A stretch of DNA of 39,555 bases from an uncultured Muribaculaceae bacterium (GTDB lineage: Bacteria > Pseudomonadota > Alphaproteobacteria > Rs-D84). Below the pieces are notes generated by a model that worked only from the letters and a program-made list of their open reading frames with translations, ran no database searches and was not told the DNA's origin. Location of the stretch: NCBI GenBank assembly GCA_964368385.1, contig CAYJAG010000005.1, positions 1 through 39,555 on the forward strand, written 5' to 3'. The position numbers and the translations under genes were made by a program. Of this stretch, positions 14,760-20,296 are shown in pieces (the stretch's first letter is position 1; the number at the start of each line of letters is the position of its first letter).

Positions 14760-15053
14760 TTATAATTGTGAAATGAAATCAGGAAACCCGTTTTCTTCGT
14801 CGTCCATCTTATCGTCAGTTTCGGCCGCAATCGCGCTTTTATCGCGAGGATCGCGACTGGTGTCTATCTTGCATTGCTCATCATTTACAATACGGCCATA
14901 GTGCTCGGCCATCTGAAGGATACGTTCGCGTTCTACCGGGTCGGGTGTTTGGCGCGCCTGGTCCATATATTGCTTGCGTCTTTGCCGCCAGCGATGACAA
15001 CGCTGAATCATAAGTCCAACAGACATTTGTTTTTTATTAGTATTATTTTGCAT
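14760..15053 (-). CDS. Small basic/acidic protein, DUF4167-like
   Basis: 97 aa. ...RQRRKQYMDQARQTPDPVERERILQMAEHYGRIV... resembles the alphaproteobacterial DUF4167 core (..Y...A......D.V..E...QHAEHY.R). It has an acidic tail. Confidence 0.5.
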   Translation of the reverse strand: MQNNTNKKQMSVGLMIQRCHRWRQRRKQYMDQARQTPDPVERERILQMAEHYGRIVNDEQCKIDTSRDPRDKSAIAAETDDKMDDEENGFPDFISQL

Positions 15054-15141
15054 TGTTTTTCTTTTTATAAATGTGGAAATAACTGCAAGAAATCTATTAA
15101 ATACCTTGCTCTGTCAGCATTTTACACTGCATGAAAACCGA

Positions 15142-15175
15142 TTGCAATAATTTTTTTTTCTGGCTATTATAGCCA
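15142..15175 (+). promoter_or_regulatory. Putative sigma70-type promoter with a 15-bp perfect palindrome over the -10 element, upstream of the prepilin-like operon
   Basis: TTGCAA (15142-15147), 17-nt spacer, TATTAT (15165-15170). The palindrome TGGCTAT-T-ATAGCCA spans 15161-15175. GGAGGG lies at 15181-15186. Confidence 0.35.
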
Positions 15176-15193
15176 ATGTAGGAGGGATGTTTT

Positions 15194-16630
15194 TTGCAAA
15201 GCGATATGCGCGGAAATTTTTTGCTGCAAGCTTTGCTGGCAATCGCCTTGGTGATGTCATTTATGTCTTTTATGGCGCCAAAATTGTCCGCGCGAAAAAG
15301 TGATGCTGCCATGGCTGCAATCGCACGCCAGGCTGAAACCGCCGCCCGCGCTGCCCGTCAATTTGTCCGCGCGAACAAATCAAGCATTGTTTATGGTCCA
15401 CGCAACATTGCGGGTGATGAATTTTCCGATTTATTGGAGCCTTTCGGTTTGCCATTGGGTTTTGTCCCGTTGACCACGGCGCAACAAAAAATCTCTCTTT
15501 TGACATCAAAAAACGATTCTGGTGTTTTGGCCTTGATAGTTCTGCAGGATGGCAAAATTTCAGATATAAAGCGCCGCGAGTTAATGGCGCGAATCGGATC
15601 TGATGCAGCATCTGCTGATAATGATGGAGTTTTGCATGGAATTGGCGGCTGGGAAAAATCCCTTAAAGATTTTGGTATAAAACCAGATTCCGCGGCCGTT
15701 TATATTTTGGTTCCAGCAGATGATGATTTTTCAGAATTGATTCGACGCAGCGCAAATGATTCTGCCAGAAACAAGTTTCACATTGATCTTTCTATGGGAG
15801 GGATGTCTGTGAAAAACAGCACCTCGCTTTCCGCAAGGAATGCCGAGCTGGGCACCGCAAACTTTGGCACTTTATCCATAACCGGTTCCAGCGATGAAAG
15901 AAAATTTAAGAATAAGATAGAGCTGGTATCCGCCACGCGCGCAGTATTTCAGACGCGGGATGGGGCAAATGCATTGAACATTTCCAAGGGCGATCTGAAT
16001 GCAAAATCTTTGTCTGCGCAAACTCTTTTCAAATATGGAATTCCAGGCGCAGTTGATGCTGGGTCGACCTCGATTAATTCATTATCAATGGCGGTCGGTC
16101 GATCAGGATTTATCGGAATGTATGATTGGGACATTCACAGCGATGTAATTTTGAATAATGTTTCAATAGACACCGAACATCTTGAAATCAATGGTTTTAT
16201 AAATGCTTCGCGCGGTCAGGATGTGTTTATAGATAAAGATGAATTAACGTATTCAACAAAAAGTGGTGTCGAGACAAGAACGCTCAGCGCCGCATCTATT
16301 ACACTGCGCGACCAGGTTTCCAGCGCCTTGCTGTCGGGATCTGATGGCGCAGTGATTTTGGACATTAGGCCAGCTGGTGTTTCTGTCCTGACAGATGTTT
16401 TATCTGACACTATAAATAACGACGCATTTGAGATACTTAAAAATCCAGCCGCCGATGATGGTACTCTGATTGGTTGCAGAAATATAATTTCTTCGCTGTC
16501 ATCGGCCCCGACATATAATTCCAAATCGGCTGCGCAAAACATTGTGTGCCAGTTCGTTTTCTGGCAGCGTCTGGAGCGGCGCATAAATATAAAACAATGC
16601 ATGTTAGACGGAGGCAGTAATTGTGGGTGA
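15194..16630 (+). CDS. Large prepilin-like (class III signal) protein, paralog 1 of 3; short leader, Gln at +5, Cys-rich C-terminus
   Basis: 478 aa. TTG start at 15194, 7 nt after GGAGGG (alternative ATG at 15206). The N-terminus is MQSDMRG|NFLLQALLAIALVMSFMSF. It shares the internal motifs ..RRELMARIGSDA.. and DLSMGGMSVKN with the next two ORFs. The last ~55 aa contain 4 Cys. Confidence 0.6.
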   Translation: MQSDMRGNFLLQALLAIALVMSFMSFMAPKLSARKSDAAMAAIARQAETAARAARQFVRANKSSIVYGPRNIAGDEFSDLLEPFGLPLGFVPLTTAQQKISLLTSKNDSGVLALIVLQDGKISDIKRRELMARIGSDAASADNDGVLHGIGGWEKSLKDFGIKPDSAAVYILVPADDDFSELIRRSANDSARNKFHIDLSMGGMSVKNSTSLSARNAELGTANFGTLSITGSSDERKFKNKIELVSATRAVFQTRDGANALNISKGDLNAKSLSAQTLFKYGIPGAVDAGSTSINSLSMAVGRSGFIGMYDWDIHSDVILNNVSIDTEHLEINGFINASRGQDVFIDKDELTYSTKSGVETRTLSAASITLRDQVSSALLSGSDGAVILDIRPAGVSVLTDVLSDTINNDAFEILKNPAADDGTLIGCRNIISSLSSAPTYNSKSAAQNIVCQFVFWQRLERRINIKQCMLDGGSNCG

Positions 16631-16639
16631 TAAGTGTAA

Positions 16640-17941
16640 ATGATGAATGATAAATTAAAGGATTTTTACAAAAAATATATCCTGGGTGAAAAGACTTCAT
16701 CCCCTGTCGTTCATAATTCGTTACTCTGTCAGCGAGGTGCGGGATTATTGGAAACTTTACTGGCAATCGCTGTTGTCGGTGCCGTTCTGCCTTTTGCTTA
16801 TAATAGTGCGATAGAAATGAGTCACAACATCGCAGATACCACCGAAGCAAACCGAGTTTTGGCATGGCATGATCCAGTAATGGCCTATGTTCGCAAGAAT
16901 CAGTCGGATTGGCCATCGACCGCACAGATAGAATTTGATGAAGAGGAAGTTGTTGTTATGGGGACTGGCGACAATCGGCTGTTGTACCCATATGCTGGAT
17001 TTATTGAAAAGCGAGATGGTTCAGGTGGCTCGGTTATAAATGCCTATTTGGCGTTCCGTCCTGTTGGCATAACCGAAACACGCGTTGCAAACATTGCAAA
17101 GAATCTGGGTTCTGATGCTGCTGTTGCCAGCGCGGGTGGAAATGCTTCCAGTTCAGCCGGCTGGAGTATTTATTCCGAGCTGTTTACAGATGGCGATTTA
17201 ATTTTTAGAATTTCGGACATTTTGGGCGATGATGATGCATACAAGTACTTGCACAGAACTTATTTGGATGATGCAGAATTGAACACCATGCGTCGCGATC
17301 TGAATATGGCAAAACATAGCATTTTTGACATTGGAAAAATAACAGCTCAAACATTGAATGCAACAAATTCGAACCTTTGGTTTATTGAAACTCCACATAT
17401 TCAGACGTCCGAAATTTATTTTCCCGAAGGCGCGTCCATTGATGCGTCCAAAGCAATCTTTGGTTCGATTAACGTGAATGGGGATGTTAATGGACTGCGA
17501 AAAATCACAGCCGGAAAATTAAAAGGATCGGGCGTTCTTGCTGGTGCGCAGTGGTCTTCACGCGGAGATGTTGTTGCAGATTCAGTAAATGTAAATGGGC
17601 CGGTTAATGTCCAGCGAGATATGGTGGTTCGTGCAGAAACCGCGCGCAGTATAAGTGGCTTTGCGGGGGTGCGTGCGAACTCGGTTGCAACGCCGTATAT
17701 TTTTGCAGATCAGATGTTTTTTGCCAGTGGTTATGGAATAACAATTTCAAGTGAGTTGTTATATTCCACCAGCGGTGTGCCAATAAAACTGGGAAGTTGG
17801 GGCTTTCCATCATCAAGCAGTCCAAAATTTTCCACGCTGACATTGTATAAATCCAGTGGAAAGGAATTAGGTGAAGTGTTGGGTGTTCCAAACACAAAAG
17901 ATGTTGCCCAGATAATGAAAAGCGGATGGAAAAATCTGTGA
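16640..17941 (+). CDS. Large prepilin-like (class III signal) protein, paralog 2 of 3; 33-aa conserved leader
   Basis: 433 aa. ...LLCQRG|AGLLETLLAIAVVGAVLPF has Gly at -1, Glu at +5 and about 20 hydrophobic residues. Shared motifs are ..TRVANIAKNLGSDA.. and DLNMAKHSIFD. The C-terminal half has G/V/N/S-rich beta-type repeats (INVNGDVNG.., VNVNGPVNV..). Confidence 0.6.
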   Translation: MMNDKLKDFYKKYILGEKTSSPVVHNSLLCQRGAGLLETLLAIAVVGAVLPFAYNSAIEMSHNIADTTEANRVLAWHDPVMAYVRKNQSDWPSTAQIEFDEEEVVVMGTGDNRLLYPYAGFIEKRDGSGGSVINAYLAFRPVGITETRVANIAKNLGSDAAVASAGGNASSSAGWSIYSELFTDGDLIFRISDILGDDDAYKYLHRTYLDDAELNTMRRDLNMAKHSIFDIGKITAQTLNATNSNLWFIETPHIQTSEIYFPEGASIDASKAIFGSINVNGDVNGLRKITAGKLKGSGVLAGAQWSSRGDVVADSVNVNGPVNVQRDMVVRAETARSISGFAGVRANSVATPYIFADQMFFASGYGITISSELLYSTSGVPIKLGSWGFPSSSSPKFSTLTLYKSSGKELGEVLGVPNTKDVAQIMKSGWKNL

Positions 17942-19302
17942 ATGAAAAATTAAAGAATTTTTATAATAAATATATTATGGGTGAAAAAGTTTCATCAAAT
18001 TCCGATTGTCGTTCGCGTGGCGGAATGATGCTGGAAATACTTTTGTCTTTGGCTATTGCGTCGGCTGCACTACCTTTTGTTCTGCGGCAATTAGATGATC
18101 GCACACATCGCGCTGAAAATGTAAGCGTAGCGCGCGACATTGCGATGACTCGCGATGCATTGGAACGTTATATGGATGCGCGAAAACGCGAATTGTTGGC
18201 ACCGACCGGATCGGCCGTTACGCGCGTGCGAATGCGCGACCTGGTTGAATACGGAAACATTCCAAAAAATTATGACAAGTTCCAAGCCCGTATAATAAAA
18301 TCCAAGGATGCAAGCGGACGTGCAGTTTTATCCGGTATGGTTATATTTGATTCTGCGGATATATCGCCTGTGCGAACACGCGAAATTGCAGAGCTTGGGG
18401 GTGAGGGCTCAGGATTTGTAGAGCGAAACGAGGCATACAGCGCATTCGGAACGTGGCGTAGCAAGACAAGTATTTTTGATGCGCAATTTGGCAAGGACTC
18501 GGTAGTAGAAAGTACAGGTACAATTTTGTCTGGCGGTGATTTTCTTTGGAGATTGCCGTCAAATGAGCCGCTAGATGGATCAATGGCCAGCGATCTTTCT
18601 ATGGGTGGGTATGGCATAAATGATGCCCAGCAAATAGATTCGTATAGCGCAGATTTCACAGAAATTCTGCGTGCGAATTTAATTTCTGCACGAAAAGTAC
18701 AGATTACGCCGCGCGCAAATTTCGAATCTGCACTGAACGTATCGGGCGAAGCCATGGTAATGGGCGCAATGACATCTGATTCAAGAAATGCGCAGATAAG
18801 CTCGGAAATGTTTTTAAATGGCGAAGCGCGCTTGACTAGATTGGATACAGCTGAACTTTGGGTCGGCGATCTGAATCTGAACGGACTTTCTGTTGGCGGC
18901 AGCGAGAAGCCAGCAATTCTGAAAGTGGGGCAGACCATAGACATTACCCGTGGTCGTATAACGGCGCGCATAGCAACAGTTGGATATAGCGGATCGGTCG
19001 CCCCGAAAATTGTTGTGACCGAGCGCATGGAAGATCCAGATAATAGGGCATATTATTGGGACTTGAAATCAGGGGATGCCCAATTTTTCGATGTTTCTGC
19101 TGGACAGCTGAATCAAATGATGAAAAATGCAATTCGCGCCGAATCAAAAAGTCCAAAAACAACCACAGAAACAATAATCAGCCAAGTGGCCGCAAATAAT
19201 AATGCGACCGTATCCGATTATGCGCGTGCACTGGGCGAAATCCAAAGCAAGGTTATGATAAAATATAACCGCTTGAAATTAGACCAGGGCAGTGTAGAAT
19301 AA
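17926..19302 (+). CDS. Large prepilin-like (class III signal) protein, paralog 3 of 3; conserved long leader
   Basis: 458 aa. ...DCRSRG|GMMLEILLSLAIASAALPF has Glu at +5. Shared motifs are ..TREIAELGGEG.. and DLSMGGYGIND. The alternative GTG start at 17938 would give a GTGA overlap with the paralog-2 stop and align the two N-termini. Confidence 0.6.
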   Translation: MEKSVNEKLKNFYNKYIMGEKVSSNSDCRSRGGMMLEILLSLAIASAALPFVLRQLDDRTHRAENVSVARDIAMTRDALERYMDARKRELLAPTGSAVTRVRMRDLVEYGNIPKNYDKFQARIIKSKDASGRAVLSGMVIFDSADISPVRTREIAELGGEGSGFVERNEAYSAFGTWRSKTSIFDAQFGKDSVVESTGTILSGGDFLWRLPSNEPLDGSMASDLSMGGYGINDAQQIDSYSADFTEILRANLISARKVQITPRANFESALNVSGEAMVMGAMTSDSRNAQISSEMFLNGEARLTRLDTAELWVGDLNLNGLSVGGSEKPAILKVGQTIDITRGRITARIATVGYSGSVAPKIVVTERMEDPDNRAYYWDLKSGDAQFFDVSAGQLNQMMKNAIRAESKSPKTTTETIISQVAANNNATVSDYARALGEIQSKVMIKYNRLKLDQGSVE

Positions 19303-19307
19303 AATAT

Positions 19308-19784
19308 ATGAAAGTTACATGCCCGTTTTGTAAAGTTGAGTATTCTGTGCGCAACCAGAATTGCCGTTTATTTCAGTGCGCGGTGTGTGGTTGCACATGG
19401 CGCGCGCCGACGCGTGAAAAAAATTCGCGATTTTGGATTTTTATTTTGTCGTGCTTTGTTTTATTGTTGGCGGTCTTTTCACTTGTTGCTTTGCTGCTTT
19501 GGATTCCACACACAAACGAGGCATTGTCTGTCCGAATGAATTCGGCTGTTCGCGCGAATGAAATTTTGATTGTGTCTGGCGTTGTTTCTAACAAGTCGGA
19601 AAAATTATATGGCGTTCCAGATTTGATTGTGTCGCTGAAAGATAATCGAGGTATGGAAATTTCATCTGAAAAATTCGCGCCACCGGCGCCGTTGCTGGAC
19701 GCGGGGGAAGAGGCAAATTTTTCAGTCCAAGTTCATAATGTCCCGGAAGGGGTGGATAAAATCTCGGTGGAATTTAATAAATGA
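19308..19784 (+). CDS. MJ0042-type zinc-ribbon / TM / DUF3426 protein (ZitP-like)
   Basis: 158 aa. MKVTCPFCKVEYSV....FQCAVCGCTW has two CxxC pairs. One TM segment follows (FWIFILSCFVLLLAVFSLVALLLWI). The C-terminal ILIVSGVVSNKS..PDLIVSLKDNRG...LLDAGEEANFSVQV...VDKISVEF fits the DUF3426 pattern. Confidence 0.65.
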   Translation: MKVTCPFCKVEYSVRNQNCRLFQCAVCGCTWRAPTREKNSRFWIFILSCFVLLLAVFSLVALLLWIPHTNEALSVRMNSAVRANEILIVSGVVSNKSEKLYGVPDLIVSLKDNRGMEISSEKFAPPAPLLDAGEEANFSVQVHNVPEGVDKISVEFNK

Positions 19785-19804
19785 TAAAACATAGGAAAAG
19801 AACA

Positions 19805-20296
19805 ATGATTAAAATGCTTAAAAAACTCATTATTCATTATTCATCATTGGTTATCGCATTAGTTGTTTCTGTTGGCAGTGCGCACTCTGACGATGTTGTC
19901 TTGCAAAGACCAAGTATATTTTCCACCAGCACAGATTGGGAAAGTGTTACAGGTCTGCGCTATGGTCAGTTTGATTTGTCTTTTATCCGGGATAAATCAA
20001 TCGGGAATAACGGGATGGAATTATATTTTCTGGATGGCTTTCCATGTATAGGTCAGGCTCAAACCGCGCGCGCATGGATTTCACCCAGCAGAATTTCAGG
20101 CACAGATGAAAAGGCAAAAATGTATATCAGCTGTGTGCAACGTCCGACTGAATTACGTTTTGCCTGGCGCGAAGCCCAGCGTCAAGATTCTCAAAATCGG
20201 ACCACAGGAATCATAACTTGTCAGATAACAGGTCAAGGACGATTAATTTCTATTAAATTGAATGATTGCGTCAAAGGGAAAAACTGGGATGAATAA
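19805..20296 (+). CDS. Small secreted hypothetical protein
   Basis: ORF 19781..20296, with ATG 19805 preferred because AGGAAAAG lies 5 nt upstream. MIKMLKKLIIHYSSLVIALVVSVGSAHS|DD is a Sec signal. The mature part has 4 Cys. The stop overlaps the rluD start. Confidence 0.55.
   Translation: MIKMLKKLIIHYSSLVIALVVSVGSAHSDDVVLQRPSIFSTSTDWESVTGLRYGQFDLSFIRDKSIGNNGMELYFLDGFPCIGQAQTARAWISPSRISGTDEKAKMYISCVQRPTELRFAWREAQRQDSQNRTTGIITCQITGQGRLISIKLNDCVKGKNWDE

Follow-up and report, generated by a model that had tools for sequence, protein, structure and literature searches.

Why should two neighboring prepilin-like proteins be most alike in the very segment that is predicted to be removed from them? 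This question is raised by a cluster of three tandem paralogues, designated P1, P2 and P3, in a window of 39,555 nucleotides (the whole stretch of DNA analyzed here). The original prediction had described the leaders of P2 and P3 as unusually long and more conserved than the mature parts, and had suggested that the leader has its own function. The genome holding the window (G000) has a size of 692 kb and a GC content of 43%; related genomes are designated G004, G005 and G006. The three genes are co-oriented, code for proteins of 433–478 aa, and each opens with a class III signal peptide. The relevant features are:

15194..16630, + strand: P1, first of the three pilin-like paralogues, 478 aa
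16640..17941, + strand: P2, pilin-like paralogue, 433 aa
16640..16738, + strand: P2 leader, 33 aa, MMNDKLKDFYKKYILGEKTSSPVVHNSLLCQRG, Gly −1 codon at 16736-16738
16644..16701, + strand: 58-nt repeat block in the P2 leader, 26% GC
16739..16801, + strand: P2 hydrophobic alpha1-N segment, AGLLETLLAIAVVGAVLPFAY, Glu +5
17938..19302, + strand: P3, pilin-like paralogue, 454 aa from GTG 17938 or 458 aa from the alternative ATG 17926
17926..18021, + strand: P3 leader, 32 aa (ATG 17926) or 28 aa (GTG 17938), MEKSVNEKLKNFYNKYIMGEKVSSNSDCRSRG, Gly −1 codon at 18019-18021
17939..17996, + strand: 58-nt repeat block in the P3 leader, 17% GC
18022..18084, + strand: P3 hydrophobic alpha1-N segment, GMMLEILLSLAIASAALPFVL, Glu +5

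The coordinates and translations of both leaders were borne out on recheck, as was their likeness to each other. The leader blocks NDKLKDFYKKYILGEKTSS (P2) and NEKLKNFYNKYIMGEKVSS (P3) are identical at 14 of 19 residues, whereas divergence is far greater in the mature parts, with 21% identity over 349 aligned codons (28% over 240 aa by BLASTP with the leader included). As DNA, the block forms a direct repeat of 58 nt (16644-16701 vs. 17939-17996) with 84% identity and unrelated flanks. Its local BLOSUM62 score is 83, compared to 17.8 ± 3.8 (maximum 46) in composition-preserving shuffles, of which 0 in 20,000 reached 83, and the likeness is beyond chance. A tblastn search of the entire genome of 692 kb recovered the block at these two sites only (E-value 4.9e-6; next best 0.45). 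A very recent duplication taking in the flanking DNA was rejected for G000 due to the unrelated flanks of the repeat. The cysteine noted shortly before the R-G motif could be found in both leaders, at −4 in P2 (ending in CQRG) and −5 in P3 (ending in RSRG). As a conserved leader feature it was rejected, since it is missing from P3 of G005, which ends in THHSRG, and from short leaders. Promoter and terminator scans of positions 14900-19900 resulted in chance-level counts (11 vs. 10.4 expected and 8 vs. 6.1, respectively), which therefore carry no information on operon structure.

For P3, GTG 17938 is the likely start codon; it overlaps the P2 stop codon as GTGA, had been considered as a start in the original prediction, and represents the best fit. 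In public gene calls, P2 starts at the second ATG (16643), resulting in 432 aa. Both long leaders must be translated. It is extremely unlikely that they are annotation artefacts with initiation further downstream, e.g., at ATG 17977 of P3, which would leave a leader of 15 aa (MGEKVSSNSDCRSRG). Such a leader would fit the family norm, and an in-frame ATG is present at this codon in G000 P3 and at the equivalent one in G005 P2, but P3 of G005 and of G006 carry ATT there. Furthermore, G000 P2 contains zero in-frame ATG, GTG or TTG codons from after 16643 to the Gly codon, the reading frame is open throughout, and the start codon marks the exact onset of the DNA likeness.

A class III signal peptide consists of a hydrophilic leader up to a Gly or Ala, followed by about 20 hydrophobic residues, often with Glu at +5, and type IV pilins show a lollipop fold, in which a long alpha1 helix is packed on a beta-sheet head. 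P2 and P3 have a hydrophilic leader ending in Gly, and a hydrophobic stretch of about 21 residues with Glu +5 follows directly (AGLLETLLAIAVV in P2, GMMLEILLSLAIA in P3). P1 has the short leader MQSDMRG, followed by NFLLQALLAIALV with Gln at +5. Residues 34-196 of P2 and about 34-200 of P3 were modeled with pLDDT values of about 70-90 as a long helix and then a sheet, resembling a pilin, and the C-terminal halves were poorly modeled (pLDDT < 50). In the fold searches, the first or nearly first ranks went to TcpA (Z 7.0), CofA (6.5), TcpB (6.0), PilM (5.9-7.6) and GspI/EpsI (5.2-6.0), Z values of 5-7.6 being in the range that the tool calls common. Against the Pfam and NCBIfam pilin models (e.g., N_methyl, PF07963), zero matches were obtained for P2 and P3 at E ≤ 1, and P1 gave a 13-bit HpsB match only. 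With the P2 profile, only the hydrophobic N-terminus of geopilin (E 0.35-0.67) and a spurious MHC match were found among solved structures. The earlier assignment as prepilin-like agrees with the signal-peptide layout, the predicted pilin-like fold and the cognate A24 peptidase encoded by G000; on sequence and model, P1–P3 would be type IV pilin-like proteins with a predicted leader cleavage after Gly −1.

In the type IVb thin pili of the IncI type (R64-like), PilV (PF04917, Shufflon_N) serves as tip adhesin and minor pilin. Judged by sequence comparison, P1–P3 would be distant relatives of PilV. P3 matched the PilV of a Serratia symbiotica plasmid by BLASTP (E 4e-11, 23% identity over 236 aa) and, as a family profile, by hhalign (96.9%, E 1.9e-10); for P2, the hhalign value was 32.6%, pointing to a far greater distance. 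When 72,556 plasmids were searched by tblastn, 13 records matched and, among the matches listed, 10 of 10 lie in pilV. The Shufflon_N model gave zero matches to P1, P2 and P3 at E ≤ 10, and plasmid PilV itself was matched at 7e-113. Similar in size (about 430 aa), PilV has, like P3, a class III signal peptide and a co-linear N-terminal region of ~220 aa. In the alignment, the S. symbiotica PilV leader reads as roughly 14-15 aa, similar in length to the ancestral P2/P3 leader (12-14 aa), whereas the long G000 leader is twice as long. In contrast to PilV, a single gene with invertible C-terminal segments, P1–P3 are three apparently fixed tandem paralogues on a chromosome. The large minor pilins TcpB and CofB (390-500 aa), from the type IVb pili TCP of V. 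cholerae and CFA/III of ETEC, respectively, share the architecture of P2 and P3, an N-terminal pilin domain and a large beta-rich C-terminal part. TcpB (Z 6.0 and 5.8) and CofB (Z 5.5) again fall into the range called common, and their sequence similarity to P2 and P3 is undetectable.

Of the pilus machinery, an A24 peptidase, a T2SSE ATPase, a T2SSF platform protein with two T2SSF domains and a secretin are present in G000. The secretin matched best with the PilN type IVB family (244.4 bits, under the cut-off of 287.65 bits) and the ATPase (547 aa) with GspE and PilB, both under their cut-offs. The single A24 match has 156 aa and consists of the A24 domain only, without a methylase domain, which is given as a type IVc feature in the review PMC10191384. 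The type IVc (Tad) system with its prepilin peptidase TadV/CpaA and the pseudopilins TadE/TadF is like G000 in this A24-only peptidase, but unlike it with regard to the GspE/PilB-like ATPase, the platform with two T2SSF domains and the PilN-like secretin, and the search with P1–P3 resulted in no TadE-type Pfam match. The PilN-like secretin and the PilV-like homology would fit the type IVb affinity that had been suggested from leader length. The same review names long leaders as a classical type IVb trait and leader length as not discriminatory for this type (PMC10191384). The alphaproteobacterial family, with genomes of 0.6-1.1 Mb, appears to keep an R64-like type IVb pilus with three putative, apparently hard-wired PilV-like tip proteins, and its retention in small genomes hints at a lifestyle in which cell-to-cell or cell-to-host contact is central.

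Each of the 36 genomes from the same family contains an orthologue of P2. Excepting the window's own leader of 32/33 aa, 18 unique P2 leaders have 12-23 aa; the 22 unique P3 leaders have 10-19 aa, with the exception of three long ones (own, G005 and G006) and an unrelated one of 40 aa. Gly −1 is invariant in all of them (18/18 and 22/22), and the ancestral-type pattern reads M, K/R-rich, [FIY][FY], .., E/Q, R/K, G. Among the orthologues compared, the long leader is confined to the three close genomes G000, G005 and G006, the family norm being 12-14 aa compared to 28-33 aa in G000. The P2 orthologue of G006 has a body with 88% identity, yet its leader comprises only 14 aa (MKDKTGIFIDQQRG). The A24 peptidases of G005 and G006 are 94% and 90% identical to that of G000, with invariant IIPD and GxGDxK motifs; identity is thus 90–94% whether the P2 leader of the genome is long or short.

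Evolutionary rates were determined as Nei-Gojobori counts and compared by Fisher tests, the leader counts being small (13-32 codons). Between orthologues, amino-acid identity is 63-81% for the leader vs. 88-92% for the body, and leader pN is 1.5-4 times the mature pN. For G000 and G005, leader pN is 0.132 vs. 0.038 in the mature part of P2 (p 0.0015) and 0.224 vs. 0.056 in P3 (p 8e-6). For P3, the values are 0.223 vs. 0.068 between G005 and G006 (p 7e-5), and 0.091 vs. 0.062 between G000 and G006 (not significant). The leader is the fastest-evolving part of P2 and P3. The claim that it is more conserved than the body, and hence functional in its own right, is not supported by these orthologues. 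Orthologues lacking the leader, which the original prediction had named as evidence against its view, do occur outside the three-genome clade and, for P2, in G006. Since a comparison of paralogues confounds age with constraint, the contrast between leader and body within G000 is no proof of function, and high similarity between the ends of tandem paralogues should be taken as a sign of constraint only after orthologues have been used to establish its age. Some constraint remains nevertheless, as most comparisons gave a leader dN/dS under 1 (0.25 for P2, 0.57-0.77 for P3). From G000 to G005, the P2 leader has diverged at synonymous sites as far as the body has (7/17 vs. 120/279). For P3, G000 and G006 show a single difference among 15 synonymous sites of the leader, compared to 137 among 299 for the mature protein (p 0.0024), a figure that a single old copy followed by drift leaves unexplained.

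The age of the shared block could be estimated from its synonymous divergence. The P2 and P3 leaders of G000 show a pS of 0.47, compared to 0.39-0.54 between species, and the mature parts are saturated at 0.72. Between P2 and P3, 5-13 of 54-57 nt of the block differ (10/57 within G000 and 5/54 for G005 P2 vs. G000 P3); between species, 4-8 differ (4-7/57 among P3 orthologues and 8/54 between P2 orthologues). As the synonymous divergence of the block is about that between species, it points to a recent copy between the paralogues. In G004, a tract of ~215 nt with ~92% identity is located upstream of P2 and P3. It is composed of palindrome-rich intergenic DNA and a 13-codon leader and ends at the Gly codon, i.e., at the predicted signal cleavage site; this copy is independent of the one in G000/G005. 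Among 25 genomes, P2 and P3 of the same genome resemble each other at their 5′ ends above background only in G000, G005 and G004. General concerted evolution of the 5′ ends was rejected, since the likeness is at background level in 22 of the 25 genomes. The exchange of leader-plus-upstream cassettes between tandem pilin paralogues is of modest interest; the literature search revealed nothing on the P1–P3 protein family or on such leader exchange, only general type IV pilin reviews.

The best explanation, which we consider probable, is that P2 and P3 are PilV-like class III prepilins whose long leader is young, clade-specific and not specially conserved, and was copied from P3 to P2 by recombination. 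An ancestral leader of 12-14 aa would have been elaborated into the long leader on P3 in the common ancestor of the three close genomes, and in the lineage of G000 and G005 a gene conversion (non-reciprocal recombination) would have carried the first ~57 nt of the P3 leader over to P2. Direction and timing of the copy are read from three genomes, with the branching ((G000,G005),G006) taken from pS values and peptidase identity only. By the positive-inside rule, the leader would keep the N-terminus cytoplasmic, and the single methylase-less A24 peptidase would cut after Gly −1 before pilus entry. The strong likeness of the P2 and P3 leaders would then be due to their recent shared origin and not to stronger purifying selection, and the shared long leader looks ordinary.

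A sequence-specific function of the long leader, e.g., as a docking site for the peptidase, for a chaperone or for the assembly platform, or in the timing of processing, kept by purifying selection or co-adaptation, is unlikely. It would account for the block being intact in 5 of 5 copies over three genomes, with zero stops or frameshifts, for the low dN/dS of the P2 leader and for the N-terminal signature discussed below, but G006 does without a long P2 leader despite its 90% identical peptidase, more distant orthologues have short leaders throughout, and 4 of 4 orthologous comparisons show faster evolution in the leader than in the body (significantly in 3 of 4). In the AlphaFold models, residues 2-13 of the P2 leader are helical, but with a pLDDT of about 50, and the P3 leader is disordered (pLDDT 28-36). 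A constraint on the nucleotides instead of the peptide, with the AT-rich 5′ block serving as a translation-initiation or coupling region or as a small RNA hairpin, is very unlikely. The block is indeed low in GC (17-26% vs. 43% for the genome), a 7-bp hairpin (GGGTGAA...TTCATCC) with the most variable codon in its loop is present in 5 of 5 copies, the tract copied in G004 is mostly non-coding upstream DNA, and the few synonymous changes between the G000 and G006 P3 leaders would fit. However, the folding energy of the two block regions is ordinary (z −1.21 and −1.10; equalled or bettered by 27 and 29 of 200 shuffles), the alignment fold has an unfavorable covariation term (+0.76), leaving the hairpin without net covariation support, and the P2 leaders of G000 and G005 have diverged at synonymous sites as much as the bodies.

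Under the preferred reading of a young, copied leader, the leader is still not free of function, since family-wide the leaders of P2 and P3 keep a basic-plus-aromatic signature at the N-terminus. It is conceivable, if quite unlikely, that this tag, on leaders of 10-40 aa, is a sorting or processing-timing signal for PilV-like tip pilins at the peptidase or platform, and that leader and upstream DNA form an exchangeable cassette, swapped independently at least twice (in the G000/G005 lineage and in G004). If true, cassette swapping would hold P2 and P3 under common control. The signature is missing from P1, whose position at the head of the cluster is kept among related genomes, and from two candidate major pilins (leaders 6-9 aa).

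The three pilin-like paralogues P1, P2 and P3 lie in tandem in the window:

P1, 15194-16630, co-oriented with P2 and P3
P2, 16640-17941, co-oriented with P1 and P3
P3, 17926 (ATG) or 17938 (GTG) to 19302, co-oriented with P1 and P2

The N-terminus of P2 reads MMNDKLKDFYKKYILGEKTSSPVVHNSLLCQRG, then AGLLETLLAIAVV, and that of P3 reads MEKS-V-NEKLKNFYNKYIMGEKVSSNSDCRSRG, then GMMLEILLSLAIA. In the 19-aa leader block preceding the R-G cleavage motif, 14 of 19 residues are identical, and the DNA contains a direct repeat of 58 nt with sharp borders (16644-16701 and 17939-17996, 84% identity) and unrelated flanks. The local score of the two leaders (83) was reached by none of 20,000 composition-preserving shuffles (mean 17.8, maximum 46), and no further copy of the block was found elsewhere in the 691,760-bp genome. 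The mature parts share 21% identity over 349 aligned codons, so that both the similarity of the leaders and the stronger divergence of the bodies were confirmed. A Cys near the cleavage site, also proposed as a common feature, is absent from the P3 orthologue of the close relative G005 and is therefore not conserved.

The genome of the window (G000) was compared with those of the two close relatives G005 and G006 using Nei-Gojobori counts.

Leader and mature part of orthologues: amino acid identity and nonsynonymous differences per site (pN)
P2, G000 vs. G005: leader 74%, pN 0.132; mature part 92%, pN 0.038
P3, G000 vs. G005: leader 63%, pN 0.224; mature part 89%, pN 0.056
P3, G005 vs. G006: leader 63%, pN 0.223; mature part 89%, pN 0.068
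P3, G000 vs. G006: leader 81%, pN 0.091; mature part 90%, pN 0.062

Between orthologues, conservation is lower in the leader than in the mature part. The pN difference is significant in three of the four comparisons (p = 0.0015 for P2, G000 vs. G005; 8e-6 and 7e-5 for P3), with p = 0.31 for P3 of G000 and G006. The dN/dS values of the leaders are 0.25-0.77, plus one value of 1.39 resulting from tiny counts, and those of the mature parts are 0.06-0.10.

P2 orthologues were found in all 36 genomes of the same family, and the gene order P1-P2-P3 is conserved at the loci examined. Among the database homologues, 18 unique P2 leaders, the window's own aside, comprise 12-23 aa and 22 unique P3 leaders 10-19 aa, apart from four long ones, namely those of 28-32 aa in G000, G005 and G006 and a 40-aa leader that is unrelated. 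The short leaders follow a pattern of M, K/R-rich residues, [FIY][FY], few polar residues, E/Q, R/K and G. The long form KLKxFYNKYIxGEKxSS occurs in P3 of G000, G005 and G006, and in P2 of G000 and G005 only; P2 of G006, with a body 88% identical, carries the leader MKDKTGIFIDQQRG, which matches the short pattern of the family. Unrelated long P2/P3 leaders (30-40 aa) are present in other genera (L032 in G024, L038 in G017, P0045, and L022 in G008), which makes leader length a labile trait of the P2/P3 family. These retain the K-rich N-terminus with the FF/FY start and the E/Q-x-G end, hence the insertions lie mid-leader.

The P2 and P3 leaders of G000 differ with a pS (synonymous differences per site) of 0.47, compared to 0.39-0.54 between species and a saturated 0.72 for the mature parts of P2 and P3. 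Within the block, 10 of 57 positions differ between P2 and P3 of G000 and 5 of 54 between P2 of G005 and P3 of G000; orthologues differ at 4-7 of 57 (P3) and 8 of 54 positions (P2). The P2 copies thus nest inside the variation seen among P3 copies. If G006 is taken as slightly more distant, based on pS values and peptidase identity (94% for G005, 90% for G006), the simplest history would begin with a long leader originating on P3 in the common ancestor of G000, G005 and G006, followed by copying of its 5′ block onto P2 in the lineage of G000 and G005. Further exchange is hinted at by the G005 P3 leader, whose tail is similar to the P2 tails. In the related genome G004 (L018), P2 and P3 are each preceded by a tract of ~215 nt, ~92% identical between the two, that combines palindrome-rich intergenic DNA with the 13-codon leader MKRKNKYLRSE(H/L)G; the identity extends up to the Gly -1 codon. 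This tract, a leader cassette copied independently, confirms that exchange between paralogues happens. Among the 25 genomes with both P2 and P3 5′ ends, similarity within a genome was above background only in G000 (35.5), G005 (38.5) and G004 (88.0), the remaining 22 (6.5-11.5) falling inside the range found between genomes. That tandem pilin paralogues exchange leader cassettes is a modest side result.

According to the review PMC10191384, the hydrophilic leader of a class III signal peptide is cytoplasmic and followed by a membrane-spanning hydrophobic stretch, with peptidase cleavage after the last Gly; the review also describes leader length as variable and a long leader as no criterion for telling type IVb from type IVa. 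The P2 and P3 leaders would likewise reside in the cytoplasm, with the hydrophobic stretch in the membrane and cleavage after the last Gly. The prepilin peptidase of G000 has kept the IIPD and GxGDxK motifs and is nearly identical between genomes with long and short P2 leaders, so both lengths are evidently handled. Because one peptidase handles both, we read the long leader as a probably tolerated, weakly constrained extension without a demonstrated separate role. The original prediction had taken leader conservation as a sign of an own function, an argument that fails as orthologous leaders are less conserved than the bodies and mostly short outside G000, G005 and G006. A leader-specific function is nevertheless retained as an improbable alternative, given that dN/dS stays under 1 and that the basic-aromatic signature at the N-terminus extends across the family.

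Constraint on the nucleotide sequence of the block is somewhat less probable still. The block has a G + C content of 17-26% (genome: 43%), and a 7-bp hairpin (GGGTGAA..loop..TTCATCC; 16684-16702 and 17979-17996 in the window) is present in all five block copies, but folding z-scores are unremarkable and the hairpin lacks net covariation support. The hairpin loop holds the most variable codon. Between the P3 leaders of G000 (17938-18021) and G006 (L015:2709-2792), only 1 of 15 synonymous sites differs, whereas the mature part shows 137 differences at 299 such sites (p = 0.0024, Fisher test), which could reflect either recent exchange between lineages or such a constraint. That the long leaders stem from a mis-called start codon is very unlikely: P2 contains no in-frame ATG, GTG or TTG between 16643 and the Gly codon, and the internal ATG 17977 of G000 P3 is ATT in P3 of G005 and G006, so the long leaders must be translated. 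The first position of the repeat is the second base of both ATG 16643 and GTG 17938, the latter overlaps the P2 stop as GTGA, and public gene calls for P3 of G000 and G006 start at this GTG (454 aa); on these grounds, the suggested P3 start at GTG 17938 is supported, short of proof.

None of P1-P3 was recognized by Pfam or NCBIfam. They are mutual paralogues (P2 vs. P3, E 1e-17; P1 vs. P3, 1e-8; P1 vs. P2, 4e-4). In AlphaFold models based on orthologue alignments, confidence is restricted to the N-terminal ~165 residues past the cleavage site, where a long helix packs against a beta-sheet. In structure searches, pilins and pseudopilins ranked at or near the top with modest Z values, for P2 TcpA (7.0), CofA (6.5), TcpB (6.0), PilM (5.9), CofB (5.5) and EpsI (5.2), and for P3 PilM (7.6), EpsI and GspI (both 6.0), TcpB (5.8) and CofA (5.5). 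A tblastn search of 72,556 plasmids, with the first 207 aa of mature P3 as query, matched 13 records; among the matches listed, 10 of 10 lay in pilV, annotated as the thin-pilus tip adhesin of shufflon systems. Against one of these plasmid PilV proteins, a genuine member of Shufflon_N (E 7e-113), P3 gave a BLASTP E of 4e-11 over 236 aa and its family profile 96.9% in hhalign; P2 is more distant (32.6%). The sequence comparisons carry more weight than the fold searches.

The window is contig C5 of the genome, which further encodes a pilus gene set:

C7:8353-11073, T2SSE ATPase (547 aa) adjoining the T2SSF platform protein (357 aa)
C1:42775-44337, secretin
C2:5628-6098, A24 prepilin peptidase
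C1:23162-23644 and C4:11603-12061, two candidate major pilins of the G|RSMIEMLGVLAI type (leader length 6-9 aa)

For the secretin, NCBIfam scored the PilN type IVB family best, at 244 bits, which falls short of the 287.65 cut-off. The single-copy peptidase (156 aa) consists of the peptidase domain alone; prepilin peptidases without methylase domain are described in PMC10191384. Given the PilV homology and this gene set, the most fitting description of P1-P3 is that of three PilV-like pilins, minor or at the tip, of a putative R64-like type IVb pilus, and their predicted pilin-like identity is supported. The organism, an uncultured alphaproteobacterium, has a very small genome (691,760 bp, 96% complete; relatives 0.6-1.1 Mb), and such a putative pilus with three PilV-like proteins in ~0.7 Mb is a second modest side result. 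The type IV pilus genes are dispersed over the contigs and retained despite the small genome.

The C-terminal halves of P2 (17198-17941) and P3 (18640-19302), about 230 aa each, have a pLDDT below 50; repeated xVNGxV motifs in P2 suggest a beta-solenoid. P1 (15194-16630) is unlike P2 and P3 in its short leader MQSDMRG, in a Gln at +5 where they have Glu, and in a Cys-rich C-terminus, and starts with TTG 7 nt after AGGAGGG. Directly 3′ of P3, 19308-19784 encodes a 158-aa protein with a zinc ribbon at its N-terminus (CPFC...CAVC), a single membrane span and weak matches, below the cut-offs, to DUF3426 and the FxLYD domain.
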